Below, piece by piece: positions 1,711 to 42,462 of a stretch of 64,000 bases of DNA; position 1 is the first letter of the stretch; each line of letters opens with the position of its first letter. The notes below the pieces were generated by a model. That model saw only the letters and a list, made by a program, of their open reading frames with translations. It had not been told where the DNA came from and ran no database searches. Both the position numbers and the translations under genes were made by a program. The stretch is from a virus (taxonomy: Duplodnaviria; Caudoviricetes), in IMG/VR virus record IMGVR_UViG_3300021399_000003, positions 32,001 through 96,000 of that record. One strand, 5' to 3'.

Positions 1711-1796
1711 CTCCTTCAACTCCAAAATAAAAGATAAAGGAAGCGGGAGTTGAACGCTTATCAGAAAGGTAGCTAATCTTTCCTATCCTTTATCTT
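1711..1796 (-). promoter_or_regulatory. Structured endonuclease-gene leader, copy 1 (three-stem junction; loop pairs with RBS region)
   Basis: AAGATAAAGG/CCTTTATCTT stem; GAAAG-ATTAGCTAC-CTTTC; TGATAA; loop TTCAACTCC complementary to GGAGTTGAA next to the RBS. Confidence 0.7.
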
Positions 1797-1828
1797 AATA
1801 TATCATAAATTTTAGAAAAAGTCAAGTG

Positions 1829-4087
1829 TTAACCGCATTTACTCCAACCACAGCTGCTACAAATAACACATCCGCCCTCTCTGCGAATGGACTCTCCACA
1901 TTCTGGACACTTTTCGCTTATATCCTGAACACTTTTTGTAGCTGCGAGTTCAGTAGCTTTTTTGCTTTTTACTATGTTCTTTTGAGGTTTTTCTTCTTCT
2001 CCATAATAAAAAGTTTGAAGTGTTTTTGCCATAATATCTGGACAAGATAATCCATCTACAGGTTTGCTAGTTTTTGCACAAGCGGGACAATAAATACCAC
2101 GAAGTTGGTCAATAATTTCTTCAACTTTTACTCCAGAGCGTAGGCCAACTGAAATTAATCTATTTACTGCCGCCGTATTAGCTTTACAGATACCACCTTT
2201 GCTGCTTTCAATAAAAGTCTCAACAAGATTACCCTCATCATCACAATTAACAGTAATATATAATGTGCCACAAGCACAATGTCTGCAATAAGTATTGCCA
2301 TGAGTTGTTCCTAATGTTTTTCGTGATACTGGAATAATAGAATCAAAAATAACCGGAATATCTTCTGGATGAATAGTTTTTGTTTCTGATTTCTTTTCGG
2401 TTGTTAAAATGCCCGCTCTGCGGCAGTTATTTCTAAATACAGTAATACCTTTAAGACCTTTTTGCCACGCTTCCATATAAATATTCATAATATCTTCTAC
2501 AGTAGCTTCTTCCGGTAAATTAACAGTGGAAGAAATAGAAGCATCAATATAATTTTGCCAAGTAGCTTGCATATCAATTCTTTGATGATAATTTAAATCA
2601 CCGGCGGTTACGAAATAATCTGGAAGCATTTTATCATCTTTAATATTGTGCTTCTCCATATATTCCTTTACAATAGGCGTATAAATTTTATATTCTACAT
2701 CTCTACCATACAAGCTTTCTGTCTTACGTGTATAATAGTTTGCAAAAATTGGTTCTATGCCTCCACTAATACCAAGCATAGTGCTTAGAGTCCCTGTCGG
2801 TGCAATTGTTAATAATTGGCTATTTGCAAGACCATTTCTTGCAATAATCGCACGGACCTTATCATCTAGATTACTAAGATAAAAATCTGATTGGTTTAAC
2901 TTATGAAAATCATATTTAGGAAATGGGCCTTTCTGTACAGCTAAATTACAAGACGCATATGCTGCGAAATTTAGAATGTCATGTGCAATAGTATCGCATA
3001 ATTCAAGAGATTCTTGACTTCCATAGCGAATACCCATTTTGATTAGCATATCGGCAATTCCCATTACTCCAAGACCTATTTGACGCCAGTTTTTAACGCT
3101 TTCTCGCTGCTCTGCTAGTGGGTGAAGTGGCAGTCCTTCATCCAAGACATCATTCAGCGCTTCTACTGCTGAATAAGTAGTTTCAGCCAAATCATCAAAA
3201 TCAAAATAAATCGCGCCCGCTGGGCTTTCTTTTACGAAAGCCGCTAAGTTAAGAGAACCCAATAAACAACTGCCACCAGCCGGTAATGGCTCTTCGGCAC
3301 AAGGATTAGTTCCTGCGTATTCAAATTCTTCAAAACCAGAAAGTAGATTGTGCTTTGTAATTCTATCCCAGAATAGCATTCCTGGTTCTCCCATATCCCA
3401 ATTATTGTAAGCTATTTTTTTGAATAATTCATAAGCATCTATAGTTTTATTAATTACTTCGCCAGTTTCTTCTCTTGTAAAAGATAGGACATATGGCTTA
3501 TGATTTTTCGCGGCTTCCATAAAATCGTTAAATACTTTAATAGAAGTATTAGCTTTAGTTACTCTTTCTAAATCGCTCTTAATATCTATAAATTCTTCTA
3601 TATCGGGATGGTTACAATTCATAGAAAGCATAAGAGCTCCTCTACGGCCATTTTGACTAATAAGTCCAGTCACCATAGAATATAAATCCATAAAAGATAC
3701 AGCACCCGAACTTTCTTTCGCAGCATTTCTAACTCTTGCACCCTTAGGAGCCAATTTAGATAAATCTACGCCAACACCGCCTCCATAAGAATAAGTTCTT
3801 GCTAGACTTTTTGCACAATCAAAAATAGATTCAAGATTATCTTCTGGAGGAGAGACAACATAACAATTAGAGTATGTAATTTTTGCCTTATCTGCTAATC
3901 CACGATTGGCCAAGATACGGCCGCCAAATAAAAACTTTTTATCTCTAATGATTTGTTTAACATTTTCTTTTTTACCACTTACTCTATCTAGCCATTCTTC
4001 AAATGTTTCATTATTATATCTATATTTTCTTTCCCAAATTGAAATACCCACTTCATTATTTTCGCCAAGCCAATCTTGAATTTTCAT
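1829..4087 (-). CDS. nrdJ: Class II (adenosylcobalamin-dependent) ribonucleotide reductase
   Basis: SNCYV, GGGVG, RRGA, TNPCAE catalytic motif, IAPTGT, C-terminal CPECG/CSSCGWSKC; no beta subunit nearby. Confidence 0.92.
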   Translation of the reverse strand: MKIQDWLGENNEVGISIWERKYRYNNETFEEWLDRVSGKKENVKQIIRDKKFLFGGRILANRGLADKAKITYSNCYVVSPPEDNLESIFDCAKSLARTYSYGGGVGVDLSKLAPKGARVRNAAKESSGAVSFMDLYSMVTGLISQNGRRGALMLSMNCNHPDIEEFIDIKSDLERVTKANTSIKVFNDFMEAAKNHKPYVLSFTREETGEVINKTIDAYELFKKIAYNNWDMGEPGMLFWDRITKHNLLSGFEEFEYAGTNPCAEEPLPAGGSCLLGSLNLAAFVKESPAGAIYFDFDDLAETTYSAVEALNDVLDEGLPLHPLAEQRESVKNWRQIGLGVMGIADMLIKMGIRYGSQESLELCDTIAHDILNFAAYASCNLAVQKGPFPKYDFHKLNQSDFYLSNLDDKVRAIIARNGLANSQLLTIAPTGTLSTMLGISGGIEPIFANYYTRKTESLYGRDVEYKIYTPIVKEYMEKHNIKDDKMLPDYFVTAGDLNYHQRIDMQATWQNYIDASISSTVNLPEEATVEDIMNIYMEAWQKGLKGITVFRNNCRRAGILTTEKKSETKTIHPEDIPVIFDSIIPVSRKTLGTTHGNTYCRHCACGTLYITVNCDDEGNLVETFIESSKGGICKANTAAVNRLISVGLRSGVKVEEIIDQLRGIYCPACAKTSKPVDGLSCPDIMAKTLQTFYYGEEEKPQKNIVKSKKATELAATKSVQDISEKCPECGESIRREGGCVICSSCGWSKCG

Positions 4088-4090
4088 ATT

Positions 4091-4348
4091 TTAGTTTTCC
4101 TCCCAATTCAATCTATCTTGATAAATACCGCCAGTGCTAAAATGGAAACCACAATAAGGACAAGTGTCATTTGTAATTTCCCAATTATACTTTGTGCTTG
4201 TATGCGGGCAATGCTTTTGATTGTCAATAATGGCAAGCTTTATTTTTTGTATGGTATCTTTTCGCTCCATAGTGGAAAGAGCCATTCTTAATTCTTTATT
4301 AAGCTGTTCGCGAGTTTGAATAATATCATCAATCCTCATATTCTCCAC
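4091..4348 (-). CDS. Hypothetical protein with Zn-ribbon (CPH/CPYC)
   Basis: ORF in operon context. Confidence 0.7.
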   Translation of the reverse strand: MENMRIDDIIQTREQLNKELRMALSTMERKDTIQKIKLAIIDNQKHCPHTSTKYNWEITNDTCPYCGFHFSTGGIYQDRLNWEEN

Positions 4349-5415
4349 CTTCCTCCTTTCGCAACCATCTCGTGAGACTGTGTAAATAAGTCTTTTGCTG
4401 ATGGATAAAATTTTAATAATAGTTCTCGTTCATCCATTGCTGGATTTTTCTTTTTAGTATTTATTCTATCATTTAAAATTATTGAATAATTATCTTTTCT
4501 GGTGACATCCGCCCACCGTTCAATGCGAATAGATAAATTCGCTAATGGATTTTTATACCCAATAAATGGTGGTTCATATAAGATTTTTATTGGTATATCT
4601 ACACTCCAAAGACAATATAATAAATTCATTTTATAAATCATATCTTTGAAGTATTGAAAGTTTGTAGCAAAATTTCCACCTAGTTGTATATAAACATTAG
4701 AATAAGGAGTAATATCGGCTTTTAAATAATTTTTATATTTATTAGTCATGTAATACACTTCATCTAATGGTATATCTAAATCAAATATAATTGTATTTGA
4801 ACGAGTCATTTTAGGATAATTTCTTATTTCAAAAAACTCGGATAACTTTTTACAAACAATAGGATGTATTCTTACAATAGAAGATGGCTTTCTATTGCTA
4901 ATATCTTCTAATATGTCGCGCCAATCTGGATAGAAAAATTCACGGTCATACATTATTAATCGTTTGTTTGACATGATAGGCGGAACTGGTAATTTCTCTT
5001 CGCCCGCATAACAGCGATAATAGCTATTATCTAATACATTAGATATAACTTTTGCTTTTATACCGTCATCGTATTTTCCCTTAAGGTATTCTTTATAGAT
5101 TGCTGGCCGCGGAATGGTAAAGTCTATAATTGAATTTTCAAATGGAATATATTTTCCATTCGTAAAAGCAGTGCCGCCATATTCTACAGCAGGCGAGCGC
5201 AAGAATTTTTCTGGCACTTTTGGAACTGCGTGCCCTTCACTGAAAAAATAAATCTTTTCATATCCAGACAAATCTTCTTCATCCAAAGATAACAATCTAC
5301 AAAACCGATTTTCTTCGGTTTTGTAATAAGTTGCTAATTTCATTATTTCAAGATTAGGAATGATAAATTTAGAGGAAGAAAAATTAGATATATCATAATC
5401 AACTAGCCCTATCAT
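4336..5415 (-). CDS. Hypothetical protein; N-terminus resembles phage radical-SAM-type proteins but lacks CxxxCxxC
   Basis: IGLVDYD...PNLEIMKLATYYK...YGGT. Confidence 0.6.
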   Translation of the reverse strand: MIGLVDYDISNFSSSKFIIPNLEIMKLATYYKTEENRFCRLLSLDEEDLSGYEKIYFFSEGHAVPKVPEKFLRSPAVEYGGTAFTNGKYIPFENSIIDFTIPRPAIYKEYLKGKYDDGIKAKVISNVLDNSYYRCYAGEEKLPVPPIMSNKRLIMYDREFFYPDWRDILEDISNRKPSSIVRIHPIVCKKLSEFFEIRNYPKMTRSNTIIFDLDIPLDEVYYMTNKYKNYLKADITPYSNVYIQLGGNFATNFQYFKDMIYKMNLLYCLWSVDIPIKILYEPPFIGYKNPLANLSIRIERWADVTRKDNYSIILNDRINTKKKNPAMDERELLLKFYPSAKDLFTQSHEMVAKGGRWRI

Positions 5416-8400
5416 TCTTCTACCTCCGCGCGCTCATATTGGAAAGTTAAATTTCCATATTCGTCTACATTTGTTATTTTAGAAATAATCGGATAGATTG
5501 ACTGTTTCTTTTTCTTTGGGATAAAATCATTTCCACGGCGAATACCTTGAACCATAAGTTTTGTTCCTCTTTGAAACCAACTTCGCTCAAGAATTTTTTT
5601 GTGACCGTCATCTCCACGCTGGCTTAATTGCTTATCATAAATCGCATACTGATTCTTATAAATCTTTACATTTACAACGCCAGTCGGGGTTAAGAGCGTA
5701 ACTGTATTACGATTCTTATCCTTATCAATTACAGTTCCAATAATTTTAAATAACTTATATACTTTGATTTCTTGGCCATTACTTCCAGGGAAACTATACT
5801 CAATTTCAGGCTCTTCTGATAATTTGAAGAAATCATCAAAATCATTCTTGGCCTTTGCTAATTCGTGCTCATGATAGTAGAATGAGATACTATCCATTTC
5901 CCACTTACTAATATTACCATCAGCATATTTATCGGCAATTTCATCATATAAAGCCTTATTTAGCTTGGCCAATGCTTCTTCTTTATTATCTTTTAAATAC
6001 TGGCGCATTGGTTCCATTGCCTTCTTATAGATATTATCCCAAGTTTTCTGTAAAACTCTTGTGCCATCTTCAACTATATCTATATCAAAATGATTATCAA
6101 TAAAGTTAATTGCGGCTTCATTTAATTCGTAATAAATTCCATCCTTACAAGTTTTTAGAAACTTATTAAATGAAAATAATTTCGCATAGAATTGCATATC
6201 AGCCGGTATCTGATTTTTCGCAATTAACATTGACATATTTTGAAGAGTTAATCTTTGCTTCTTATCAGCAATCATGTCAATATATTTTGCCATAATTTCT
6301 TCGCGCGGAATATTCTCAATATTATCAAACGCGCCAGACTTAATTAAATTTATCATTTGAAGTTTATTCACCTTAATTTTCATTAAGAAATCTTTCAATG
6401 ACTCATATGGTCGCATAGCCATAATTTCATTAATCTTGTCCGTGGAGACGCGAGTGATGCCGCGTAGCCCATAAAGAATAACATTATCTTTTGCGACAGG
6501 TGTAAATGTAAAAGAAGACTGGTTGATGTCAGGTGGAGATACTTTAATTCCATAATCGCCCATTTTACCAATAATTGAGGCAATACGCCCATAGTCAACG
6601 ACTTTGTTCTTTTTCTTTTTCTTATCTGCCGTTGTTTCGGTTGTTTCTTCATTTGCTTCTTCCCATTCTTCTTCATCTTCTTCATCTAAATATTCAGAAG
6701 TATTCATATATTCAACACTATTTTCTAATAAGACAGCTTGAATTTCATCTTCATCTTCTTCATCAATATCTTCGGTTTGAACTCCACCGCTATCTACTAT
6801 CAGATTTGCTGTGTTCCAATACACAATTGGATACCTATATGCCAGATTCATTTCTTGAAGAGCAATAATGGAATAAGCATAAGTATGACTTGCGTTAAAA
6901 CCGTATCCGCGGCTTAACGCGATTTGAACATCCCAGACATAATGACAAAATCTTTTACTAAGATTCTTTTCATCTACTCGTTCATAAAATTCTTTGGTTA
7001 GTTGCTCATATTCTTTTGGGTTCTTCTTCGCAATACTCTTACGAAGTCTATCAGCCCATTGTAAGTCCCAGCCGCCGCATTCTGGTAGCTGAACTAATTT
7101 CATAAATTGTTCCTGTGTAATTGACAAACCGTCTGAAACATCTAATTGCTCATGAAGCAATTCTCGTTCCTTATTTGAAAGACCATACTGAATCATTTCA
7201 GTTTCCCAATCATTAGGATGCTTACGAAAACGAGCATATTTATCTAGTGGTGATTCTGCACCTTTTTCTGACGCCATAAGACGAATAACCGAGTTTAAAG
7301 TTGCTAAGTCATCAACATTTTTTGGATGAGTTAGTGAAATACCACGAATACCACTTGCCTTTTCCATTTGAAAAAGACTTACAATCTTATGTTCATCTAC
7401 TAACTTCCACATATCTTCGTCATCACGAAGAATGTTATATACACCCAATGCTTTTTCATATGTTTCACGTAAAGTCGGATACTTTTCAATATATCCATCT
7501 TTAATTAACATTTCAAGACAGGTCTGGATTTTATCTGCGGCTTCAACCGATAGAAGGTCCATTTTAATTTCTGAAACATCCTCCAAATCGTGAAGCTCAA
7601 ACTGAGTAATAATTGTTCCATCGGGCGCGCGCATAAGAGCACTAGACTCAGTGAAATCCTTATCCTTAAACACGACACCGCCCGCATGGATACCATATCC
7701 ACAAATTAGTCCTTCAATTTTACTAGCAACTTCCCATAACTTATCATACTTATTTATTTCTTCAACAAATGTTGGATTTGGTTTAATACCATTTTCTTCA
7801 TCACCATAATACATTTGATGTAATGTATATGCTTGGCCACGTTCCTGCGTAACCAGCGAAGAAATATACTGCGCATTATCTACATCAATTCCTAAACCGC
7901 GACATGCGGTAAGAATTGCTGATTTAGACTTTTCTAGTTTGAATGTTGCTACATTTGATACTCGGTTTTCACCATAATACTTTCTCAAATGTTCCAACAC
8001 TTGCGCGCGCTTAATACCAGAAATATCTACATCAATATCAAGAACAGACACACGTGCAGGATTAAGGAAACGCCAAGGATACATGGCTGTCTTTTCGCGC
8101 AAAGCATTAATTTGAATAATGTCTAACGCATATAAAAGTAAGAATCCGCCACCAGAACCACGTGCGGGCATAACTAATGTTCCAGCATTCCAACACTCAT
8201 CTATGATTTTTTGAAGATTAAGGAAGTAGGCGGACCATCTTGCTTTATTTACTTCACTAGAAACCCAAGTCATATTTAGACACTCATTAAGCGCATCATA
8301 TGCTTTTTGATTCTGTAAATCTTCGTGCTTTTGGATTCCATCAATAACAGCAAAGAATAATTCATTATCAGCACGATAAAAGGAATGAAGAAATTTATCT

Positions 8401-9401
8401 AATTCTGGAATATAATTAATATACTTATCTATTTCCTCTTGCGTGCGCGCGTGAAACTCGCGCCAAGGCAGCATAGGAATTTCTAACGGCTTTAAGATTG
8501 AAAAATCTTCACACTTATCTTTAATTTCTCTAATATAATAATATGCGGCTTCAATTTCTTCTTTTTCAAGATAAGGAAAAAACGAACGAATTTCCTCATC
8601 ACTCATCATATAAGTCGTTTCATAAAAACTTCTTACTTCGCGCTCACCATCCTGCGCATTAAGAAATGATTCGTGAATGAATGAATCTTCTGGCCGCAGA
8701 TAATGACTATCGGTTGTAATGATATATGGAAGTTTTAATTCTCTTGCTATCTTAATGAGATGTTGATTAATAAAAATTTGCTCTTTATTATTAGATGGTT
8801 GTAATTCAAGATAAAAATTACCACGACCAAATATATCTTCTATATATAGACACCATTGTTTAGCGGTTTTATAAAACTCTTCATCACCGGTATCCATATA
8901 TCTTAAAAGGAATTTATCAAGCTGTGAACCAAGACAAGCTGACGATGCAATTAAATGTCCTTGATTTGGCTTAACGACTTCTTTTAAATCTCGGTAGTAA
9001 GTTGGACGCCTCCTTAACCTACGACTAATATAAGAACGACGCCACGCGCGAGTAGAAAGTTCACAAATCTGATGATAACCTTCCAAATCACGACAAAGAA
9101 GAATAAAGTGGAAATACCTATCTTTATTCTTATCATAATTTGTCGCATTTAAATCATTTCGCGTAAGATAAATCTCATTACCACGAATAAGTTTAAAATC
9201 TGGATGTTCCTTTTTAATTTTATTGTAATATTTTTCAGCCTTAATATAACTTGAAATAGTTTCATGGTCTGTGATTGCTACACACTCATGATCTAATTCA
9301 ATAGCCGTATCAATCAGAGAATTTACTTTATTAATACAATCTCGTAAAGTCTCATTACTATAATCCGTGTGATTATGAAGACTACCAGGGTATTTACTCA
9401 C
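5412..9401 (-). CDS. dnaE: DNA polymerase III alpha subunit (family C, PHP domain)
   Basis: LHNHTDYS, AITDH, RGSGGG, LDIDVD, GIHAGG, KMDLL, YGFNASH. Confidence 0.95.
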   Translation of the reverse strand: MSKYPGSLHNHTDYSNETLRDCINKVNSLIDTAIELDHECVAITDHETISSYIKAEKYYNKIKKEHPDFKLIRGNEIYLTRNDLNATNYDKNKDRYFHFILLCRDLEGYHQICELSTRAWRRSYISRRLRRRPTYYRDLKEVVKPNQGHLIASSACLGSQLDKFLLRYMDTGDEEFYKTAKQWCLYIEDIFGRGNFYLELQPSNNKEQIFINQHLIKIARELKLPYIITTDSHYLRPEDSFIHESFLNAQDGEREVRSFYETTYMMSDEEIRSFFPYLEKEEIEAAYYYIREIKDKCEDFSILKPLEIPMLPWREFHARTQEEIDKYINYIPELDKFLHSFYRADNELFFAVIDGIQKHEDLQNQKAYDALNECLNMTWVSSEVNKARWSAYFLNLQKIIDECWNAGTLVMPARGSGGGFLLLYALDIIQINALREKTAMYPWRFLNPARVSVLDIDVDISGIKRAQVLEHLRKYYGENRVSNVATFKLEKSKSAILTACRGLGIDVDNAQYISSLVTQERGQAYTLHQMYYGDEENGIKPNPTFVEEINKYDKLWEVASKIEGLICGYGIHAGGVVFKDKDFTESSALMRAPDGTIITQFELHDLEDVSEIKMDLLSVEAADKIQTCLEMLIKDGYIEKYPTLRETYEKALGVYNILRDDEDMWKLVDEHKIVSLFQMEKASGIRGISLTHPKNVDDLATLNSVIRLMASEKGAESPLDKYARFRKHPNDWETEMIQYGLSNKERELLHEQLDVSDGLSITQEQFMKLVQLPECGGWDLQWADRLRKSIAKKNPKEYEQLTKEFYERVDEKNLSKRFCHYVWDVQIALSRGYGFNASHTYAYSIIALQEMNLAYRYPIVYWNTANLIVDSGGVQTEDIDEEDEDEIQAVLLENSVEYMNTSEYLDEEDEEEWEEANEETTETTADKKKKKNKVVDYGRIASIIGKMGDYGIKVSPPDINQSSFTFTPVAKDNVILYGLRGITRVSTDKINEIMAMRPYESLKDFLMKIKVNKLQMINLIKSGAFDNIENIPREEIMAKYIDMIADKKQRLTLQNMSMLIAKNQIPADMQFYAKLFSFNKFLKTCKDGIYYELNEAAINFIDNHFDIDIVEDGTRVLQKTWDNIYKKAMEPMRQYLKDNKEEALAKLNKALYDEIADKYADGNISKWEMDSISFYYHEHELAKAKNDFDDFFKLSEEPEIEYSFPGSNGQEIKVYKLFKIIGTVIDKDKNRNTVTLLTPTGVVNVKIYKNQYAIYDKQLSQRGDDGHKKILERSWFQRGTKLMVQGIRRGNDFIPKKKKQSIYPIISKITNVDEYGNLTFQYERAEVEE

Positions 9402-9456
9402 ACAATCACTTCCTTTCTTTATTCTATAATTATTATATCATAGAATTTTATTTTTG

Positions 9457-9621
9457 TCAATTATAAGGATATTCATGTTCTTTATAATCCCAAGCTACCT
9501 GTTCTTCATATTCATCTTTTTCTTGACGAATAGTCAAACAAGCAGCGTTATTTCTAGACCAAAATACAGGACAATTTTCTCCATACTTACATTCAAAACA
9601 TTCAATATCTTTAAAAATCAT
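9457..9621 (-). CDS. Small Cys-containing hypothetical protein (54 aa)
   Basis: Manual translation MIFKDIECFECKYGENCP...; overlaps the end of the upstream gene. Confidence 0.5.
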   Translation of the reverse strand: MIFKDIECFECKYGENCPVFWSRNNAACLTIRQEKDEYEEQVAWDYKEHEYPYN

Positions 9622-17258: not shown

Positions 17259-17948
17259 TCAAATATTAGTTAAGTATTTTGCTACTGTTTGACGAGAAAT
17301 TTTTAATTCTTTTCCTATTTCATTTAAAGTATATCCCTGTTGTCGAAGTTCACGGGCTCTTGTTTTATTATTTTCTCGTTGATTTGTTGTTAATAAATCA
17401 GGTCGTAGTCGCTGTAAAACTCTATTTATTGTAGTTGTTCCACAATTTAAAATACTTGCTATTAATACAGTGCCGTATCCAGCCTCTTTCATTTCACAAA
17501 TTAAAGCATCTTTAGCGTGAGCAGTATTTAAATTATGATTTTTTAAAATATCAACTACTGTTTCTCTACTACATTTTAATTCTTGACAAATTTCAAAAAT
17601 CTTTTTATTTTGTTGCCGTAATATTAAAACTTGTTTTTCAATGCCCTCATTTAATCGTTTATTGCCACAACCACCTAATGTAGAATTATAACCATTATAA
17701 TAACTATTATAATAATTAATCCAATACATTTCTCTTTCATCTAATAAAGAATCTGAAACTTCTTCTATTAAAAAAACATGAAACTTTTCTTGGCCTATTA
17801 AATGAATAGCATTATAAAATTTATTTTTAATATTATTATTAGAATTATATAAATGTTGTTTAAAACGAGTTTCAATAGATAACGTAGTTTGACCAATATA
17901 AACCTTGTCATTCACATCATTTGTGATTTTATAAATATATCCCATCAT
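17259..17948 (-). CDS. GIY-YIG homing endonuclease with C-terminal HTH repeats
   Basis: GYIYKITN..VYIGQT..R, GYNSTLGG. Confidence 0.9.
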   Translation of the reverse strand: MMGYIYKITNDVNDKVYIGQTTLSIETRFKQHLYNSNNNIKNKFYNAIHLIGQEKFHVFLIEEVSDSLLDEREMYWINYYNSYYNGYNSTLGGCGNKRLNEGIEKQVLILRQQNKKIFEICQELKCSRETVVDILKNHNLNTAHAKDALICEMKEAGYGTVLIASILNCGTTTINRVLQRLRPDLLTTNQRENNKTRARELRQQGYTLNEIGKELKISRQTVAKYLTNI

Positions 17949-17951
17949 AAT

Positions 17952-18034
17952 CCCTCCCAGGATATTGATTATATAAGAGGCTTGTGTGGGAGCACATTAT
18001 CTCAAAGAGTAGCTAATTCTTTGCTTCCCTCTTA
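17952..18034 (-). promoter_or_regulatory. Structured endonuclease-gene leader, copy 2
   Basis: AAGAGG/CCTCTT; CAAAGA-ATTAGCTAC-TCTTTG; AGATAA; TGTG-CTCCCA-CACA; loop pairs with RBS TGGGAG. Confidence 0.75.
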
Positions 18035-18072
18035 CTATAATAATTATATTATAAATTTAGAAAAAAGTCAAA

Positions 18073-25435: not shown

Positions 25436-25436
25436 A

Positions 25437-28587: not shown

Positions 28588-29283
28588 TTAATAAGGTCTT
28601 ATGCGTCCTGATGTTTTCATTTTATTTTTATTCATTTTAACAATTTCTTCTATTGATAAAGTGTCATTAATTCTACGCCAAAGAAAATGTTTATGCGAAT
28701 AAGCATAGTGGGCACAACATCTATTTACTTCGTTTCTGTCAAAACCTGCTTCTTTGACTTCTTTTGAAGTATTAAAACGCCGGATAAAATTACCCTCCAA
28801 ATCATATTGTTCTATTGGAATACTATTTTTATTTTCTCGTATTTTAGCGGAGCGTTGTTTCTTTTGTTCGGTGTCAATACCTAAATTAGATAAAGTATAA
28901 CTGGCTGTCATATAAGTACATCCCAATTCATTACTAATATCAGAGCAAGAATAGCCTCTATTCCATAAATTAAGAATTTCTTTTTCAGAATATTTTTTAT
29001 CGCCCTCTCCGCCAATGGTAGAATTATATCCCTTTTTATAGGAATCATAGAAATTAATCCAATAAATTTCTCTTTCATTTAATTGTTCTTCAGGTATATT
29101 ATCTTCTATTATAGAAGGATAAAAATGTTCAATTCCATATTTACGAATTGCGTAATAAAATTTATTATTTGTATAATAGCTATCTTTTTGATGGTCTTTC
29201 CAACGAATTTCTAAAGTTCTTGTAGTTTTTCCTACATAAACCTTATTATTAATATCATTGATTATCTTATAAATTAAACCCAT
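28588..29283 (-). CDS. GIY-YIG homing endonuclease (HTH + NUMOD1-like)
   Basis: GLIYKIIN..VYVGKT..RW, GYNSTIGG, IEQYDLEGN. Confidence 0.9.
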   Translation of the reverse strand: MGLIYKIINDINNKVYVGKTTRTLEIRWKDHQKDSYYTNNKFYYAIRKYGIEHFYPSIIEDNIPEEQLNEREIYWINFYDSYKKGYNSTIGGEGDKKYSEKEILNLWNRGYSCSDISNELGCTYMTASYTLSNLGIDTEQKKQRSAKIRENKNSIPIEQYDLEGNFIRRFNTSKEVKEAGFDRNEVNRCCAHYAYSHKHFLWRRINDTLSIEEIVKMNKNKMKTSGRIRPY

Positions 29284-31935: not shown

Positions 31936-32015
31936 ATTTTGCTCCTTTTTTCTTTTATTATAACATAAATTTTAAAAGAAGTCAAGATAAAGTAAAAGAG
32001 GGAGATTTCTCTCCC

Positions 32016-33844: not shown

Positions 33845-33886
33845 TTAATCCTCCTCGTTGTCGGAGGGACAACTTATTTATTTATA

Positions 33887-35014: not shown

Positions 35015-35585
35015 AAAAATGCTCCTCTTTCATAATTTCGTCTACGCTGCCTTCAAGGTCTTCAAGTCCCCTACAATTCTCTATAATCCAATTAAACGCG
35101 AAATTATCAAGCTCACATTCACTAATATGATTTAATTGGTCAGAAGTCATATTTGGATTTTCCCAATCTAAACCATTTTCATCATATCTTATTATGCGAA
35201 TAGTAATTGTTTCATTGTTCTGAATAGCGGCATAATCGTATACTACTTCATATTCATTTATAAAACGCCAATCAGGAATTAAAATGTAATCAAAAAAACT
35301 ATGATCTGGAATTGTATAGGCATCAATAAACTTTCCAATTATTTCAGCCCAATAAGTTGGATAGCGGCCGCGCATAACTGTTGTGCCAATTTCTTGTAGT
35401 AAACTGCGACCAGCTTCATCTTTTTCGCCATTCCAATTAAAATACTGGACTGCGTAATACTTAACTAAATCAGCAAAGTGCATTACAAGAACACGCTTTC
35501 CAGTATTTTCTAGCTTTTCTTTCATAATGTTTGCTACGGTATCTTTGCCCGACATACTTTTTCCACTAATCATTACTATTTTCAT
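35007..35585 (-). CDS. Deoxynucleoside monophosphate kinase
   Basis: GKSMSGKD, FADLVK, R.LLQEIGT, DWRF.NE, HISE. Confidence 0.85.
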   Translation of the reverse strand: MKIVMISGKSMSGKDTVANIMKEKLENTGKRVLVMHFADLVKYYAVQYFNWNGEKDEAGRSLLQEIGTTVMRGRYPTYWAEIIGKFIDAYTIPDHSFFDYILIPDWRFINEYEVVYDYAAIQNNETITIRIIRYDENGLDWENPNMTSDQLNHISECELDNFAFNWIIENCRGLEDLEGSVDEIMKEEHFYD

Positions 35586-35814
35586 TTCTTAATTGCTCCA
35601 ATCTTAATCTAAAATAAAAGTCCACAAAATCTTTTTCTTCTTCTGTTTGACAGGAGTTTGCGAAATTAGAAACCATTTTTACACCTTCAAATGGATTAGG
35701 TTGTTGTAATGCTAAATCAACCCAATTTTTTGCTAAATCTCTAATATATCCAGGAACATTTGGAAATAATTCAATCATTTTGTTTTTCCTCTTGTATTTT
35801 TTTAATAGCGTCAA
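35566..35814 (-). CDS. Hypothetical protein
   Basis: ORF track; probable start at MIELFP. Confidence 0.6.
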   Translation of the reverse strand: MTLLKKYKRKNKMIELFPNVPGYIRDLAKNWVDLALQQPNPFEGVKMVSNFANSCQTEEEKDFVDFYFRLRLEQLRNENSND

Positions 35815-36112
35815 AAAAGGCTTGCACCTCTTCTTTTGAATTAAGAACTAATTTTCGCACTGGTATAGGTGGTCTTCGCTCGTCATCATCCGGCATTTCA
35901 AAAATATAATACTTTTCTGGTTCTGGTTCTCCAAAATCAGCCGAATAAAAAATACGGCTACATAAACACTTACCAGTTTTGTTACTATATATTTTTGCCG
36001 CACTATGAGTAGTCCCTATTTGTTCTAGTACAACTTTGCGGCATTCGGGCTTAATTTGTTCTACAAACCCCTTATAATCGTTTCTTGTAACTTCAAAAAT
36101 ACTATTATCCAT
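35771..36112 (-). CDS. Hypothetical protein
   Basis: ORF in operon. Confidence 0.65.
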   Translation of the reverse strand: MDNSIFEVTRNDYKGFVEQIKPECRKVVLEQIGTTHSAAKIYSNKTGKCLCSRIFYSADFGEPEPEKYYIFEMPDDDERRPPIPVRKLVLNSKEEVQAFFDAIKKIQEEKQND

Positions 36113-36113
36113 A

Positions 36114-36614
36114 TTAACCTCGCCAATGTATTTTTAGTGTTTCCGCTTCTAGTTGTGCAAGTTTATCACATTGTTCATTCCAGTAATTTCCAGTGTGTCC
36201 TTCTACTTTGCGGAAATCATACCAAAAATTATCAAAGAATGGAATAATTTCTTGCCACAAATCTTGATTTGCAACAGGTTGGTTTTTAGAGTTTTGCCAG
36301 CCATTAGTTCGCCAACTTGTATACCATTCTTGTTTATAGCAATTAATAGCATAAGCAGAATCACTATAAATAATTACTTTTTCTCCTTTTTGTCGAATAC
36401 CTTGAGCATATCTTAGCGCTTCAAGGATAGCCATTAATTCCATACGTTGATTAGTAGTCATTGGAACTCCGCCTGATTTATGATAGAAGTCATTTCCTTC
36501 GCGTAAAGCATAAAAAGCCCATCCACCAAAAGTGGATTGTTGTCCCATATGTTTTAATGAACCGTCAGTGTAAATTTCTAATGGAATAATTTTTTCCTTG
36601 CTTCGCTTTTCCAC
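36114..36614 (-). CDS. rnhA: Ribonuclease HI
   Basis: YTDGS, TNQRMEL, SDSAY, NQDLW, KVEGH, NEQCDKLA. Confidence 0.93.
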   Translation of the reverse strand: MEKRSKEKIIPLEIYTDGSLKHMGQQSTFGGWAFYALREGNDFYHKSGGVPMTTNQRMELMAILEALRYAQGIRQKGEKVIIYSDSAYAINCYKQEWYTSWRTNGWQNSKNQPVANQDLWQEIIPFFDNFWYDFRKVEGHTGNYWNEQCDKLAQLEAETLKIHWRG

Positions 36615-36681
36615 AAGATATCCTCCTTTTATTCTTTATATTTATTATATAATAAATTATAAAAAAAGTCAAGGAAGAAGC

Positions 36682-36924
36682 TTATGCTTCTTCCTCTTCT
36701 TCAATTTCATCATCATCTTCATCTTCATATTTTTCTAGTTCTGGTAATCCAGCTATACTAGTTAAAAGACTAAGAATACCAGCCAATACAGAAGCAGATG
36801 CCACAACTGCCCAATTTACTTCAGAAAGAATTGCACTTGTGCCTATAGTTGCTACAGCTGTTTGAGCTACGGTTTTAATTGCGCGGATGCCTGCTGCCGC
36901 GAACCAACGTTTAAAGTTGAACAT
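36682..36924 (-). CDS. Holin (r1t-like)
   Basis: [34 protein letters not shown]. Confidence 0.85.
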
Positions 36925-36936
36925 AATAATACCTCC

Positions 36937-37413
36937 TTATTTTAAAAAGCCATCTGTTTTTAATAAATCTTCATAAAGTGATTTTATATAATTAAATTCC
37001 ATTTTAAATACTCCATTTTTATCATCGGTTTGAGCTAATAAAATGGTATATTTATCATTTAATTCAATTATATGTTTAAATTCATCTTTGGTATGTTGTC
37101 TACCATTATGACAAGAATTAGCAAAATCTAATATTTCCCATCGTATACGGTCTTTTTCATTTTCTTTAACTTCTCTTTCAATTATATTTATTTGTTTAAC
37201 CAAGTCATCGATTTTTCCGCACGCTTCTCCCATTATTGTTTTGCCAATCCATTTGATGATAGTAGACCAAGGATTTACTTTTATTGGAGCAATTTGGATA
37301 AACAAAGAACCAACTAGTATTATTTGCCATAGGTTCTTTCCTATCCACTCCCATATTTGTTGAGCATTTCCCACTGGCCTTCCCCTCCATAAAAAGAATA
37401 AATGAGATTTCAT
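36937..37413 (-). CDS. Membrane-anchored protein typical of holin neighbourhoods
   Basis: IQIAPIKVNPW, RWEILDFANSC. Confidence 0.65.
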   Translation of the reverse strand: MKSHLFFLWRGRPVGNAQQIWEWIGKNLWQIILVGSLFIQIAPIKVNPWSTIIKWIGKTIMGEACGKIDDLVKQINIIEREVKENEKDRIRWEILDFANSCHNGRQHTKDEFKHIIELNDKYTILLAQTDDKNGVFKMEFNYIKSLYEDLLKTDGFLK

Positions 37414-37465
37414 TTCTCATGAGATATGTAGTGTGTGTAAAGAAGGGATTGAATAAAATGTTCTA

Positions 37466-39592
37466 TTAAAAACTCATTGCTTCATTTATATTACTTAATA
37501 TATCAAGTATGCCAGCAAGGAAATGCATATCTAGTTTTGTTGCTCCCATAGCAGCTTCACTTGTGGCTTCCCAATCAGATGTTTCTAAATGGCCGTCTGA
37601 ATTTATTGGTCCATTATTATATGTATATAATGTTGCTTTTATTCCGCCTTTTAAATTTGATTTAATATCTGCGCTTGCTTTTATTAATGTATTGTAAGTT
37701 TGTTGTAATATAAAAGAATTTGGCATATATATTCCATTAATAGTGTATAAATGAATATCATTCGCGCCAGTATCATTATAGCCTATTTGTTTAATAGCAT
37801 CTTCAAACATTAACTGAGCATCATTAAACATTAAAAAACCAATCATTGTTGAAAAATAATTCTCTAAAGAACTTTTATTATTTTGACCTATTGCTCCACT
37901 GCCAGCATTTAACATAGCAAACAGTAACCAGTTAATATCAGTAGAAGTAAGAAAACCATTCATTGTTTCTTGTATAATGGATAATTGTTCAAAGATGTTA
38001 GAACCGAATGACGCTCCTTGTAATCCTTGATATTCACGATTGTTTTCTCCAATACTAATATATCCTTTAATAGAGCCATGAATATTTACGCTATTTAAAA
38101 AATTATTAATGATTCCTTCCTCATCTTCTATGCTTTGCAATGTTTGTTGAATAATGATATTTTGTTTTGTTCGTAAATTTCGTAAAGTCGTAATATTTGC
38201 TCTATAGCTTGCCAAATCAGTAGTAGTTTGAATATTTTTAAAGGCGTCTTCTCTTCGAGAAGATATTAATTTTTGAGCTTTTTCAATTTTTTGATTTACT
38301 TTTTCATTTTCTGTAATTGTAAAAAATAATCTTCCAGCCAAATAGTCATTAGTAGGGTTTTTATTACCACCTAAAGTTCCATCTAATCCAGCGGCAATCA
38401 TTTCCATGAGAGTTATTTGTTCACTGGCATAGTAATGTTGAATTGATACATTTTGACTGCTTAAATACATTTGTTTAAGTGTTTCATCATCAGCCCCTAT
38501 TTCTTTTCTCCATTTATCGAAATTTTTTCCGCGCCTGCCGTGGGGCCTAGTTTGCTTGTAAGATTGAAGTAAACGATTTTTAATTGTTTCTATTTGTTGT
38601 TCTATATTCTCTATTTCTTTAACATTTTTATCCATACCCATTTGTTTTGCCATAGAAGTCAAAGCTGGTTTTAAAGCAGAAGATTTTTCTAAAGATTCAA
38701 TAAAATTGGTAAACTCTTTTCCTTCTATTATTTTTTCCATTTCTTCTTGATATTGTGGGATATTATCTTGTGTTTTTATTTTGGTTGCTTCTATTCCTTT
38801 AGTTATAATAAATATTTCATTAGCTTTATCAATAAGGGTTTTTAATAAACTATTCATTTCACTCCCATTTAATTCTAATTGTTTTCTTATTGTAAACAAT
38901 TTGCTCCCATATTTTTTTATTATTATTTCTGTTAATATACTTATATTACTTTTATTAGAAAAAATACTATTAATGACAGTGCTTGTTTTCCCTGTTTTAT
39001 CATCATTTTGAAAACTGCTTAATTGAGTACGATTAGAATAATAATGCTCTGATTTTATCTGACTGCGCTCTTTAGAGTCCGTTATATCTTTTACTAAATT
39101 TTCTGCTTCTGATATTAATTTTTTTCTTTCTTCTGCTCGTGCGAGTTCTTGTTCTAACTGTTTTTTAAATGGTTCAAAATTTTTTATTATACTATTTAAT
39201 TTAATAATTAACTTCATATAATCATCTTTAACACTTTCAATACCAAGAGGAAGTTGCTTTTCAGGAAATTGTTTTAAAAAATTTTCTATAAATTTTTCTT
39301 CTTTAACTCTTTCATTAGATGCAGCTTTTTGTAAATATTGAAGAGCTATGTCCATTTTTGTTTGTGGCTCTCCATTTTTAGAGGATGTTAATTGCCCTAA
39401 TCCGCTATTTAAATAATTTACCGCGTCATCATAAGCTCTTACTCCTTGGGGAGTTTTTACATTAGCTAATGATGAATAATAAACGTATCTTGCTCCGACC
39501 GTAAATGGGTATCCATTTTCAGCCATAAAATATTTTGAATAGTCTATTTTTGTTTTTTTCGCGTTAGTTTTTCCCATTCCCTCACCCCACAT
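37466..39592 (-). CDS. Large hypothetical protein (~700 aa)
   Basis: Long ORF, no recognised motif. Confidence 0.7.
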   Translation of the reverse strand: MWGEGMGKTNAKKTKIDYSKYFMAENGYPFTVGARYVYYSSLANVKTPQGVRAYDDAVNYLNSGLGQLTSSKNGEPQTKMDIALQYLQKAASNERVKEEKFIENFLKQFPEKQLPLGIESVKDDYMKLIIKLNSIIKNFEPFKKQLEQELARAEERKKLISEAENLVKDITDSKERSQIKSEHYYSNRTQLSSFQNDDKTGKTSTVINSIFSNKSNISILTEIIIKKYGSKLFTIRKQLELNGSEMNSLLKTLIDKANEIFIITKGIEATKIKTQDNIPQYQEEMEKIIEGKEFTNFIESLEKSSALKPALTSMAKQMGMDKNVKEIENIEQQIETIKNRLLQSYKQTRPHGRRGKNFDKWRKEIGADDETLKQMYLSSQNVSIQHYYASEQITLMEMIAAGLDGTLGGNKNPTNDYLAGRLFFTITENEKVNQKIEKAQKLISSRREDAFKNIQTTTDLASYRANITTLRNLRTKQNIIIQQTLQSIEDEEGIINNFLNSVNIHGSIKGYISIGENNREYQGLQGASFGSNIFEQLSIIQETMNGFLTSTDINWLLFAMLNAGSGAIGQNNKSSLENYFSTMIGFLMFNDAQLMFEDAIKQIGYNDTGANDIHLYTINGIYMPNSFILQQTYNTLIKASADIKSNLKGGIKATLYTYNNGPINSDGHLETSDWEATSEAAMGATKLDMHFLAGILDILSNINEAMSF

Positions 39593-39668
39593 ACAAAAAA
39601 TTCGCCCGCAAACGCGGGCGTTCCTCTGTATATAAGTATTAAATTATCATTTTATTTACATCATTTTC

Positions 39669-39914
39669 TTAATGAACCCTATCATAAAAATACTTTAAAA
39701 GATAGGCTTCATCTGCTAAGTCCATACAAAAAATTTCATATTCATCGCCATGAGTATCAGCAAGCTTTCCAAGTGCAATAAACTCAGATAACTTACTTTT
39801 AAGATTAAATTCTTCAGTTCCATCTACACTACGAAGAATTACATCTCCTCTACATTGTCTAATTGCAGCGCGAAACGCTTCTAGATCACTAATATTCTTT
39901 AAAAACCTACTCAT
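39669..39914 (-). CDS. Small hypothetical protein (HPr-like fold possible)
   Basis: CRGDVIL...NLKSKLS. Confidence 0.6.
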   Translation of the reverse strand: MSRFLKNISDLEAFRAAIRQCRGDVILRSVDGTEEFNLKSKLSEFIALGKLADTHGDEYEIFCMDLADEAYLLKYFYDRVH

Positions 39915-40213
39915 TACTCAATCACATCCCTTATTATTCTTTCATAGTGTATTGGATCAATATTTTTATAATCTGACCACTTTACTAAGTTATCAACAGA
40001 TTCTGCGTCACTTAAATCATATTCTTGACGCCAACCTGACCAATCGTAAAACTTATCAAAGTTACGGAAAAGGAAATGTCCCTCTACAAGGTCATACCAA
40101 ATTTCTCCCTTAAATCGCATCTTAAGAATGCGCGCAAAGTAGTAACAGTTTCCTTCTAACCAATCACAGTTTGATGGAAAACGACGGTTAATAAATTCCT
40201 CTATCTTATCCAT
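39914..40213 (-). CDS. Hypothetical protein
   Basis: GNCYYFA..GHF..YDW; RBS AGGAGG. Confidence 0.65.
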   Translation of the reverse strand: MDKIEEFINRRFPSNCDWLEGNCYYFARILKMRFKGEIWYDLVEGHFLFRNFDKFYDWSGWRQEYDLSDAESVDNLVKWSDYKNIDPIHYERIIRDVIE

Positions 40214-40238
40214 TCCGAATACCTCCTAGAATAATTAC

Positions 40239-40309
40239 TAGACGCCTTATAAATAAAATAAAAATGGAGCCAAAATATAATTGCTGTTGTTGTGGCACAA
40301 TGGCGTCTA
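40239..40309 (-). ncRNA. ACAGCAA stem RNA, copy a
   Basis: TAGACGCC..ACAGCAA..GGCGTCTA. Confidence 0.5.
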
Positions 40310-40316
40310 AAATTAG

Positions 40317-40389
40317 CAGGCGTGGCTGGATTTGAACCAGCGAATGCATGGGTCAAAGCCATGTGCCTTAACCACTTGGCTACACGCCT
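40317..40389 (-). tRNA. tRNA-Gln(UUG)
   Basis: Cloverleaf; CATGG-CT TTG AC-CCATG; followed by CTA. Confidence 0.92.
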
Positions 40390-41108
40390 ATAATTTTATT
40401 ATACCATTCTATTAGTTCTTTTTTCTTAGACGGAATATTATTTTTTACACACCATTTTACAACTGCTTTATCAGAAACTCCATATTTTCTGCCTACTGCA
40501 GAAAAACTAGATTCAACAATTTCTTTTGCCAGTTGAATACCTTGCGGGCGTGCAGATATTTTTTCTTGTCTTTCTTGTATTTTTTGTTCTTTTTGACGTT
40601 GTTTTTCGTTTCGAGCAATATCTATTAAAGACGGTCTAATAGGATAGATTAAATAATCTTTTCTCCAAGAAGCTCCACTATTAATTGCTCGAATAGTTCT
40701 TCCAGAAACATTATATTTTGCACCAATAATATCGCTATTATCTAATGTATTTTTTAAATCATTAACAATATTATTAAAAATTTCGTCCGTCATTTTAATT
40801 GCATGAGGAGCATTTTGACCACCTTCTGTTCGATTATATCCATTATTAAAACTGTCATAATAAGAAATCCAATATTTTTCTTTTTCATCTAATTCGGATA
40901 CAAGACATTCTTCTAATATTTCAAAAGAAAAATTATTTAATCCATACAATCTCATATCTTTATATAATGGATTATTATAATTGACTATATTATTACCTAA
41001 ATAATCTGTTCTATGATTTCTCCAACGAGTTTTAATATCTTGTGCTTGACCAATATAAACTAATCCATTTATTAAATTAGTTATTTTATAAATACCACAT
41101 TGTACCAT
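40380..41108 (-). CDS. GIY-YIG homing endonuclease
   Basis: GIYKITN..VYIGQA..RW, GYNRTEGG; stop lies within tRNA-Gln. Confidence 0.9.
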   Translation of the reverse strand: MVQCGIYKITNLINGLVYIGQAQDIKTRWRNHRTDYLGNNIVNYNNPLYKDMRLYGLNNFSFEILEECLVSELDEKEKYWISYYDSFNNGYNRTEGGQNAPHAIKMTDEIFNNIVNDLKNTLDNSDIIGAKYNVSGRTIRAINSGASWRKDYLIYPIRPSLIDIARNEKQRQKEQKIQERQEKISARPQGIQLAKEIVESSFSAVGRKYGVSDKAVVKWCVKNNIPSKKKELIEWYNKIIGV

Positions 41109-41114
41109 AATATC

Positions 41115-41205
41115 ACTCCTATTTGTGATTTAAATTATAATATTGGCTTAATGAATAGGCATTATTATCTCAAAAGTTAATTACTCTTTTGCTACCCAAT
41201 ATTAT
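41115..41205 (-). promoter_or_regulatory. Structured endonuclease-gene leader, copy 3
   Basis: ATAATATTGG/CCAATATTAT; CAAAAG-AGTAATTAA-CTTTTG; AGATAA; TAATG-CCTATT-CATTA; loop pairs with AATAGG at the RBS. Confidence 0.75.
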
Positions 41206-41206
41206 T

Positions 41207-41283
41207 TGGTGCGAGTAGAGGTAGTCGAAACCTCATCTCCTGGGTGGAAGCCAGGTATTCGAGCTGTTGAACTATACACCTGC
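41207..41283 (-). tRNA. tRNA-Gly(UCC), irregular acceptor stem
   Basis: CCTGG-CT TCC AC-CCAGG; T arm GAGGT-TTCGACT-ACCTC; ACCA. Confidence 0.75.
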
Positions 41284-41626
41284 ATAATGCCACTTTAACC
41301 GCTGTGGCCGCGTGCTCCCCAGGTACGCTTGAATCAGAGGCGCGGGCAAGTCTATCAACAAAGTCGCAAAGCGACTTTTCCGCTCTTTCTACACATGGTA
41401 GATGAGCTATGTAGTAACCCCGTGTTTAATGAGCTTTCTGCACGCTACTCTGGCCAGCTCAATATTTGTGGTGTGCTATTACGCCAAATCTCATGTTCCC
41501 ATTATCCGTAGGCACATCATACTCAAAAGGGCGTTCCACAATCGTAGCCTTTTGATACATTTCGCACCCACGGGAGAACTTAGAACTCCTTAGCTGGTGG
41601 CTGCTTCTAAGCCAACAGTCCACATT

Positions 41627-41722
41627 TGGCGACAGGCTTCGGACTTGAACCGAAACATCAGTATATACTAATTACTCTCTGATTAGCAATCAGATGCCTT
41701 ACCAAATTAGGCTTAGCCTGTC
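41627..41722 (-). tRNA. tRNA-Ser(GCU)
   Basis: TCTGA-TT GCT AA-TCAGA; long variable arm; GCCA. Confidence 0.9.
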
Positions 41723-42378
41723 TTATCATTATCTTGCCATTTCCAAATATAGCCATAAGCGATATTCCTTAGTCCTCGTGCGCATTGACTAATATGGTTA
41801 CTACCTGATTCTTTTCCTAAACTTTTTGCAGCAGAATAACAAGAATAAAATTTATTGATTAAATTACCATTTAAATCATATTGACATAAAATATTATAGT
41901 TATTTTTTATTTGTTTTTCATTAAATAAATCATTTTTTAATTTTATTTCTTTGTTCAAAATAGTAGATAAAACATTCTCTGCGGTATAATTTTCAATGAA
42001 AAAATTAACATTTTGATTTTTTTGTATAGGTGTAAAACTTAAAGTGATTTTATTAGAATAATTTTCACATTCTTGAACAGGAATTAAATAACATTGATTA
42101 TTAAAGTAAGTTGCAAATAAATCAATTTCATTACTAGAATAATTATGTTTAATGTTTTCTTTACCTGATGTTGTTAGACTATATAAATTAAATTCAATTC
42201 CAGTATCTTTTTCTTTACAAGTTTTTACTTGTATTTTTAACAATTTCAACTTAATATCTAATATCATATCATATCTGCAATCTTCTCCAATTGGAATGCT
42301 TATATTATATCCTAAAGAAGTAAGATATGCTTGACATAATAATTCTGTTGTGATTCCTTTAATTTTAGTATCTACCAT
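41713..42378 (-). CDS. PD-(D/E)XK free-standing homing endonuclease (group I intron-associated type) with NUMOD1-like tail
   Basis: KG..TE..SIP..RYD..KIQVKT..Y...IDLFATY; start moved to ATG at 42378 by RBS spacing; stop lies inside tRNA-Ser. Confidence 0.82.
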   Translation of the reverse strand: MVDTKIKGITTELLCQAYLTSLGYNISIPIGEDCRYDMILDIKLKLLKIQVKTCKEKDTGIEFNLYSLTTSGKENIKHNYSSNEIDLFATYFNNQCYLIPVQECENYSNKITLSFTPIQKNQNVNFFIENYTAENVLSTILNKEIKLKNDLFNEKQIKNNYNILCQYDLNGNLINKFYSCYSAAKSLGKESGSNHISQCARGLRNIAYGYIWKWQDNDKTG

Positions 42379-42386
42379 TTTTATCA

Positions 42387-42462
42387 CTCCTTTGATAAAA
42401 CTTTGTAGGGCTTGCGAAGGAGCGCATTATCTCATCAGTTAATTACTCTGATGCTACCCCTA
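42387..42462 (-). promoter_or_regulatory. Structured endonuclease-gene leader, copy 4
   Basis: TAGGG/CCCTA; CATCAG-AGTAATTAA-CTGATG; AGATAA; TGCG-CTCCTT-CGCA; loop pairs with RBS AAGGAG. Confidence 0.75.

Follow-up and report, generated by a model that had tools for sequence, protein, structure and literature searches.

Homing endonucleases are selfish and potentially toxic elements, and the control of free-standing ones outside T4 is largely unknown. A 64,000-nucleotide stretch of tailed-phage DNA (Caudoviricetes; positions 32,001 to 96,000 of IMG/VR record IMGVR_UViG_3300021399_000003, hereafter “the window”), which belongs to a complete phage genome of 169,459 bp with terminal repeats, raises the question in a concrete form: four endonuclease genes of two nuclease families, all on the minus strand, are preceded by leaders of similar design, and we asked what this leader is and what it might do for the genes that it precedes. 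Judged by its covariation the leader is a genuine RNA family, and we consider it likely to be a cis-acting 5' leader RNA that serves as a portable translational lock, keeping nuclease synthesis low.

An initial annotation of the window, made from the sequence alone, had proposed an architecture common to the four leaders, and a reading of the sequence bears it out: P1, a joiner, P2 with a nine-nucleotide loop, (U/A)GAUAA, P3 and P1' follow one another in each copy (Table 1). The general layout is P1 - GNAG - P2 (9-nt loop) - AGAUAA - P3 (6-nt loop) - AG - P1', and the leader is about 85-100 nt long. Pfam searches likewise agree with the nuclease families that had been assigned to the four genes. 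A covariance model, R1, was built from copies 2-4 only; copy 1 was left out of the seed alignment because MAFFT misaligned it, and it served as the held-out test case. With filters off and both strands of the window searched (128 kb), the top non-seed match of R1 was copy 1, at 19.5 bits (E 0.003), with the runner-up at 11 bits; under model R2, copy 1 reached 32.2 bits. The resemblance among the four copies is beyond chance. No fifth copy was found in a covariance-model search of the 169-kb genome.

Homologs of the leader were found well beyond the window. A degenerate pattern, for which about one chance match was expected, gave 29 viral loci, and a model-based search of 26 whole phage records gave 41 copies, from one to four per phage; the phages bearing them are mostly of 80-185 kb and several are complete. 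Extra viral and metagenome copies were collected with patterns that left the P2 loop free. A bacterial and archaeal genome collection contained seven pattern matches, one of them a real copy in a Clostridia metagenome-assembled genome from a roe-deer abomasum; the other six are chance matches, near the number expected by chance. The total set holds 110 copies, 89 of them distinct, from related phage and metagenome contigs.

Covariation in a larger alignment had been named as a check on the initial annotation, and it is evident here: compensatory change is present at all 15 modelled pairs, and as many as six pair types are seen at a single position. Standard pairs fill 96.1% of the cells, versus 70.4% after shuffling and 23-46% when the partners are slid, with the provisos that cells count sequences and not independent events, and that the alignments were fitted to the model, which biases pair counts towards the modelled structure. 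The first 37 copies had given the same picture of pairing and compensatory change. While the stems vary freely, the joiner GNAG is kept in 96/98 leaders and AGAUAA in 89/98, and the closing pairs are near-invariant along with the joining strands; within the copies found by covariance model, the only deviations in the junction are UGAUAA, AGUAA, AGACAA and AGAUUAA. Three of the window's four copies regain the three-way junction under minimum free energy (MFE) folding.

The relation of the leader to the ribosome-binding site (RBS) is equally consistent. As the initial annotation had noted, the exact complement of each P3 loop (UUCAACUCC, CUCCCA, CCUAUU and CUCCUU in copies 1 to 4) is present at the RBS of its own gene. 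The whole P3 loop, of at least 6 nt, is complementary to its own Shine-Dalgarno (SD) region in 34 of 35 unique leaders, whereas loops taken from other leaders reach full complementarity in 44 of 1148 comparisons (3.8%), this test covering 22 distinct P3 loop sequences. The target lies 8-11 nt upstream of the start codon; in 36 of 39 leaders it is itself the loop capping a stem of 4 bp or more (mean 6 bp), here called P4, the 3' strand of which ends 0-9 nt before the AUG. Model R3, a longer one with P4 included and the loop-loop pairs left out, was used to realign 108 copies: P4 is 95% paired in this alignment and covaries at five of five pairs, and the six pairs between the P3 and P4 loops (L3 and L4), though outside the alignment model, are 88-94% paired, with compensatory change at each. 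The full 26-pair structure is 95.3% paired versus 66.8% in shuffles, and a length of 6 nt was found for L3 in 67/89 leaders and for L4 in 70/89. Two 6-nt loops thus match each other base for base from end to end, which is the geometry of the TAR-TAR* and RNA I/RNA II complexes. We infer that the SD contact is a loop-loop kissing complex of the P3 and P4 loops; the RBS pseudoknot first proposed stands as far as the covarying loop/SD complementarity goes, but not as a plain pseudoknot, the SD being the loop of a fourth hairpin. This hairpin, with the SD in its loop, is one of two features absent from the initial annotation, the other being a palindrome in the P2 loop.

In 81 of 98 unique leaders, and in 25 of 35 loop types, the six bases at positions 3-8 of this loop read as a perfect palindrome, against a chance expectation of 2-3% estimated from base composition; the palindrome is not an artefact of retrieval, because the later search patterns left this loop free. 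Seven palindromic hexamers occur (UAAUUA, UAGCUA, UCAUGA, UGAUCA, UUGCAA, UGGCCA and GUCGAC), and there are further hexamers in UGAUUA, which is self-complementary with G-U pairing, AGGCCA, which has a GGCC core, and UAUAUA, seen in one weak match. The symmetric positions covary, with AU in 54, CG in 15, GC in 6 and UA in 2 leaders at one pair and AU in 55 and GC in 30 at another; they are 93% paired versus 75% when shuffled, and 0 of 500 shuffles were as high. The loop is 9 nt long in 84/89 leaders and is laid out as 2+6+1. Since a hexamer within a 9-nt loop is unable to fold on itself, an intermolecular kissing dimer is the simplest reading, and the P2 loop most likely mediates RNA homodimers by loop-loop pairing. 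Phages with two or three copies often bear differing palindromes, which may be due to chance, and the window's phage has two palindromes in two copies each.

The genes behind the leader were surveyed by scanning 75 distinct downstream proteins against Pfam, some of them translated with TAG as Gln. The domain tally was GIY-YIG 25, HNH_3 11, HNH 7, HNH_2 1, PDDEXK_5 8, DUF2726 2 and DUF559 2, or, when grouped, GIY-YIG 25, HNH-type about 19 and PD-(D/E)XK-type 12; NUMOD1/3/4 and helix-turn-helix (HTH) modules, typical of homing endonucleases, also appear in it. The remaining proteins are unannotated or match only NUMOD/HTH DNA-binding domains, and among the 25 families shown for the 75 proteins there is none outside nuclease and DNA-binding domains. 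The classifiable downstream proteins are nucleases, which places the leader directly 5' of homing-endonuclease genes; that endonucleases of unrelated families share it, as first claimed from two families in the window, now extends to GIY-YIG, HNH and PD-(D/E)XK-type genes.

The portability claimed for the leader is best seen at the site between tRNA-Gly and tRNA-Gln, where three alleles are found. The window carries copy 3 and its GIY-YIG gene there (40380-41205); at locus L245 (1403-2229) the leader is 97-100% identical up to the ATG, after which an HNH_3 gene replaces the GIY-YIG gene; and in the corresponding region of G020 (120680-120915), a related complete phage, the two tRNA genes are separated by just 86 bp, and both leader and gene are missing. 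The empty site and the exchange of the open reading frame (ORF) indicate that the leader is part of the inserted cassette, with ORFs exchangeable behind it, and the claim holds on both counts.

A leader copy of 60 bits in L296 (3642-3724, minus strand) is followed by a promoter-like site and a tRNA gene, with no ORF, and could be what is left of a nuclease cassette that has since disappeared.

In many related phages (for example L264, L272, L198 and L288) an in-frame TAG stands where the 'YIGQ' motif of GIY-YIG has its conserved Gln, from which we take it that TAG is read as Gln there. No in-frame TAG was found in the nuclease genes of the window itself, and its phage is not clearly recoded, open-frame coverage hardly changing when TAG is treated as sense. 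A tRNA with anticodon CUA is encoded at 59296-59369 (minus strand); an apparent “tRNA within a tRNA” at 59254-59404 proved to be an alignment artefact around this plain tRNA(CUA).

The 5' contexts reported for the window, with copies 3 and 4 directly after a tRNA and copies 1 and 2 directly after a promoter, are representative of a wider picture. Among 38 distinct upstream contexts, at least 11 have the leader starting 0-6 nt after a tRNA 3' end, counted from ARAGORN calls, which miss others such as that of copy 4; a further 13 have a -35/-10 pair with the -10 box ending 0-7 nt before P1. These contexts put the leader at the predicted 5' terminus of the mRNA, where either transcription starts or a tRNA has just ended, and the latter placement also fits nucleases that target conserved tRNA genes. 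In the linker, TATAAT occurs in 22 of 75 cases versus 4.7 expected; 11 of the 22 end only 2 nt before the SD loop, too near the SD, and many are part of the P4 stem. A late promoter inside the leader, as in T4, is a possibility in these 75 linkers, though none is convincing.

These observations are consistent with a translational lock of the following kind. The leader travels with free-standing homing-endonuclease genes, and its three-way junction of P1, P2 and P3 bears a 6-nt P3 loop exactly complementary to the P4 loop, which is the SD. The two loops would kiss within one RNA, and the kissing would hide the SD from the 30S subunit and hold nuclease translation low. The P2 palindromes would pair two leaders loop to loop, and dimer formation may stabilise or tune the lock. 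A bolder version, in which the dimer acts as a protein-free and ligand-free governor of how tight the SD lock is, seems to us doubtful. If true, it could involve a dimer with loops possibly swapped between partners; translation per mRNA would drop as phage genome copy number and nuclease mRNA rise, and differing palindromes would insulate co-resident leaders from one another.

Several points weigh against a lock with a dimerising loop. The MFE z-scores are weak (-0.3 to -1.6) and the MFE structure of copy 4 lacks the junction; with z-scores so unremarkable, the case is founded on covariation and not on stability. Full pairing of a 6-nt hairpin loop within a kissing helix leaves little steric room. 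As a plain duplex, the commonest palindrome, UAAUUA, contributes just -0.4 kcal/mol, and one lineage (L301, L302, L342, L349, L375, L376, L392, L398 and L401, all after tRNAs) has the non-palindromic P2 loops GGUCGCUAC, GGUCGCUCC, AGUCGCUCU and AGUCACUCU, for which no cis partner was found within the flanking 60-70 nt. Not every nuclease gene of this genome has the leader: upstream of 52324-52965 (minus strand), a GIY-YIG gene, the SD is buried in a simple local hairpin of the T4 style, CCUAUU-AUA-AAUAGG (52966-53010), and the GIY-YIG gene at 28588-29283 overlaps the upstream ORF. The conservation of the junction is partly a product of the search patterns used to fetch homologs; its 12 near-invariant bases are more than a simple lock would need, and the lock would account for only part of the function. 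Such invariance could come from a precise scaffold that keeps P3 directed towards P4, from a rearrangement upon dimerisation, or from a binding site for a ligand or protein.

We searched Rfam, another check that had been named for the initial annotation, and no characterised family matches the leader: at the gathering thresholds of Rfam 15 none of the four copies has a match, and permissive scans gave chance-level matches only. A tRNA-like reading of the leader was rejected for want of model support. Membership of RAGATH-14 (RF03145) was rejected as well, the match being confined to copy 1 at 15.5 bits (E 1.3) versus a gathering threshold of 149.1 for this 190-position model, with no match at E 1 on the other leaders; what the two have in common is one hairpin, whose 9-nt loop AUUAGCUAC is identical, and small hairpins after it. 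A full-text literature search found no description of the leader.

Among the rival explanations, the conserved junction invites that of a true switch, in which it would bind a small molecule or a phage or host protein that decides whether the P3 loop has access to the SD loop. Near-invariant joiners amid freely varying stems are the pattern of aptamer pockets and protein sites, and the geometry of P2 is fixed. However, we found no competing, mutually exclusive structure of the kind expected of a switch, no Rfam riboswitch model matches, and the unrelated nuclease families make autoregulation by the encoded protein unlikely; the part played by the search patterns in the apparent junction conservation counts here too. 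Such a switch, which would time nuclease synthesis and not just damp it, extends the lock rather than excluding it, and we hold it to be possible, though on the unlikely side. A self-cleaving ribozyme that frees the upstream tRNA or trims the mRNA is hardly credible: the leader does lie directly 3' of tRNA ends, phage contexts are rich in small ribozymes and one copy weakly resembles RAGATH-14, but hammerhead, twister, twister-sister, pistol, hatchet and HDV-like models list nothing on the leaders even at E 10, and for the third or so of the copies that begin at a promoter cleavage would be purposeless.

Position and mobility suggest two other readings. In at least 24 of the 38 contexts P1 lies 0-7 nt from a predicted 5' end or 0-6 nt from a tRNA, as would befit a 5'-end module whose folded terminus blocks 5'-dependent decay or sets the boundary of processing after a tRNA, with SD pairing secondary. 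We judge this improbable, since it leaves unexplained both the exact, covarying complementarity of L3 with the SD loop and the palindromic P2 loop, while adjacency to tRNAs is explained equally well by homing into conserved tRNA genes. Different ORFs behind the same leader, with homology stopping at the ATG, and the presence of several copies per genome would suit an element acting as DNA, a recombination or homing site or a homology arm for swaps of the nuclease ORF, with the RNA fold incidental. This is very unlikely given the compensatory changes that keep pairing at 26 positions while the primary sequence drifts, the loop-SD complementarity, which is meaningful only in RNA, and the asymmetric 2+6+1 loop, which is unsuited to a symmetric DNA site. 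The translational lock remains the reading that we prefer.

Table 1. Leaders, their structural parts and adjacent features in the window (stems as 5' strand/3' strand).
Feature	Positions	Strand	Sequence or joiner	Basis or remark
Leader copy 1, divergent member	1703-1796	-		sequence, R1, R2, MFE fold
Copy 1 P1	1787-1796/1731-1740	-	J1/2 AUAG	
Copy 1 P2	1778-1782/1764-1768	-	J2/3 UGAUAA (1758-1763)	
Copy 1 P3	1755-1757/1743-1745	-	J3/1 UU	
Copy 1 P2 loop	1769-1777	-	AUUAGCUAC	palindrome UAGCUA
Copy 1 P3 loop, candidate anti-SD	1746-1754	-	UUCAACUCC	9-nt complement at 1715-1723
Copy 1 target and SD	1711-1723	-	GGAGUUGAA, SD GGAG	P4 ill-defined in copy 1
Copy 1 promoter, sigma-70-like	1797-1825	-	TTGACT-17-TATATT	end of -10 box abuts first base of P1
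Copy 1 gene, GIY-YIG + NUMOD1 endonuclease	1016-1702	-		Pfam
Leader copy 2	17949-18035	-		
Copy 2 P1	18028-18035/17973-17980	-	GAAG	
Copy 2 P2	18018-18023/18003-18008	-	AGAUAA (17997-18002)	
Copy 2 P3	17993-17996/17983-17986	-	AG	
Copy 2 P4	17960-17963/17950-17953	-		
Copy 2 P2 loop	18009-18017	-	AUUAGCUAC	palindrome UAGCUA
Copy 2 P3 loop	17987-17992	-	CUCCCA	
Copy 2 P4 loop (SD)	17954-17959	-	UGGGAG	candidate kissing partner of P3 loop
Copy 2 promoter	18043-18071	-	TTGACT-17-TATAAT	-10 box ends 7 nt before P1
Copy 2 gene, GIY-YIG + HTH_7 endonuclease	17259-17948	-		Pfam
Leader copy 3	41109-41205	-		
Copy 3 P1	41196-41205/41137-41146	-	GUAG	
Copy 3 P2	41186-41191/41171-41176	-	AGAUAA (41165-41170)	
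Copy 3 P3	41160-41164/41149-41153	-	AG	
Copy 3 P4	41125-41129/41112-41116	-		
Copy 3 P2 loop	41177-41185	-	AGUAAUUAA	palindrome UAAUUA
Copy 3 P3 loop	41154-41159	-	CCUAUU	
Copy 3 target	41118-41123	-	AAUAGG	within P4 loop; overlaps SD AGGAG
tRNA-Gly(UCC)	41207-41281	-		3' end 1 nt before copy 3 P1
Copy 3 gene, GIY-YIG endonuclease	40380-41108	-		Pfam
Leader copy 4	42379-42462	-		
Copy 4 P1	42458-42462/42406-42410	-	GUAG	
Copy 4 P2	42448-42453/42433-42438	-	AGAUAA (42427-42432)	
Copy 4 P3	42423-42426/42413-42416	-	AG	
Copy 4 P4	42393-42400/42379-42386	-		8-bp stem reaching the AUG
Copy 4 P2 loop	42439-42447	-	AGUAAUUAA	palindrome UAAUUA
Copy 4 P3 loop	42417-42422	-	CUCCUU	
Copy 4 P4 loop (SD)	42387-42392	-	AAGGAG	
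tRNA with 73-nt anticodon-loop insertion	42464-42606	-		3' end 1-2 nt before copy 4 P1
Copy 4 gene, PD-(D/E)XK (PDDEXK_5) + NUMOD1 endonuclease	41713-42378	-		ATG at 42378; Pfam E 2.7e-26

The window has other features of its own. The tRNA region of the phage contains a full-length ROOL RNA (45818-46394, minus strand; 298 bits) and a drum RNA (48591-48686, minus strand; 60 bits); on the plus strand of the drum region there is a hairpin, GAAA-AGUAAUUAA-UUUC, with UAAUUA in its loop. The tRNA in front of copy 4 resembles tRNA-Lys(UUU), and no insertion is present in its relatives in L245 and G020; its own anticodon-loop insertion, and a second one of about 50 nt in the tRNA gene at 48088-48218 (minus strand), are far too short for group I introns. 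A DnaE-type DNA polymerase of 1329 amino acids (5412-9401, minus strand) is 37% identical to YorL of the Bacillus phage SPbeta, a likeness which points to a Firmicutes-type host.

The conserved RNA module described here moves, in large phages of the gut and rumen, together with nuclease genes from three or more unrelated superfamilies. It would unite an intramolecular loop-loop lock on the RBS with a loop apparently built for RNA-RNA dimerisation. It could be put to use as a compact, natural part for translation control, it is a new candidate for the short list of natural RNA homodimers, and it flags nuclease cassettes of phages even when the encoded protein is unrecognisable.

The closest functional parallel is found in T-even phages, where SD sequestration has been shown experimentally to regulate the endonucleases I-TevI, I-TevII, I-TevIII and segB, and mobE of Aeh1, by RBS hairpins that are simple, gene-specific and relieved by a late promoter inside the hairpin (PMC2988022). 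The leader resembles them in standing immediately 5' of a homing-endonuclease gene, in an SD that RNA pairing would occlude, and in the limit on nuclease translation that is presumed to follow. However, the SD is buried in a local stem in the T-even hairpins, whereas here it is the P4 loop, complementary to the P3 loop, and it comes with a three-way junction that is conserved and portable and with a third, palindromic loop, and a promoter inside the leader is doubtful; the comparison upholds the initial view of the leader as the more elaborate of the two.

For the P2 loop, the parallels are the HIV-1 dimerisation initiation site (DIS) and the oskar 3' untranslated region, in which an apical loop with a central six-nucleotide palindrome mediates kissing homodimers (PMC7357161). 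The apical loop of P2 has a central, covarying self-complementary hexamer of the same kind, one lineage excepted; its palindromes differ in being mostly A/U-rich and in belonging to the mRNA leader of a phage with DNA as its genome, and its dimers are putative. The HIV-1 DIS also has a 9-nt loop laid out as 2+6+1, like that of P2. TAR-TAR* and RNA I/RNA II of ColE1 are complexes of two hairpin loops, each 6-7 nt long and complementary from end to end; the complex predicted for the leader differs in being intramolecular, with the SD as one of its loops. Riboswitches offer a further likeness, preQ1-II and SAM-II by sequestering the SD through pseudoknots and the purine riboswitch by its three-way junction: in the leader, too, P1, P2 and P3 meet around a conserved core and a tertiary contact would hide the SD, but its L2 and L3 are not paired with each other, a purine-riboswitch-style contact having been rejected on inspection of the non-complementary loops. 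What is known, then, is SD occlusion on endonuclease genes; what is new is a conserved, portable junction with two separate predicted loop-loop contacts.

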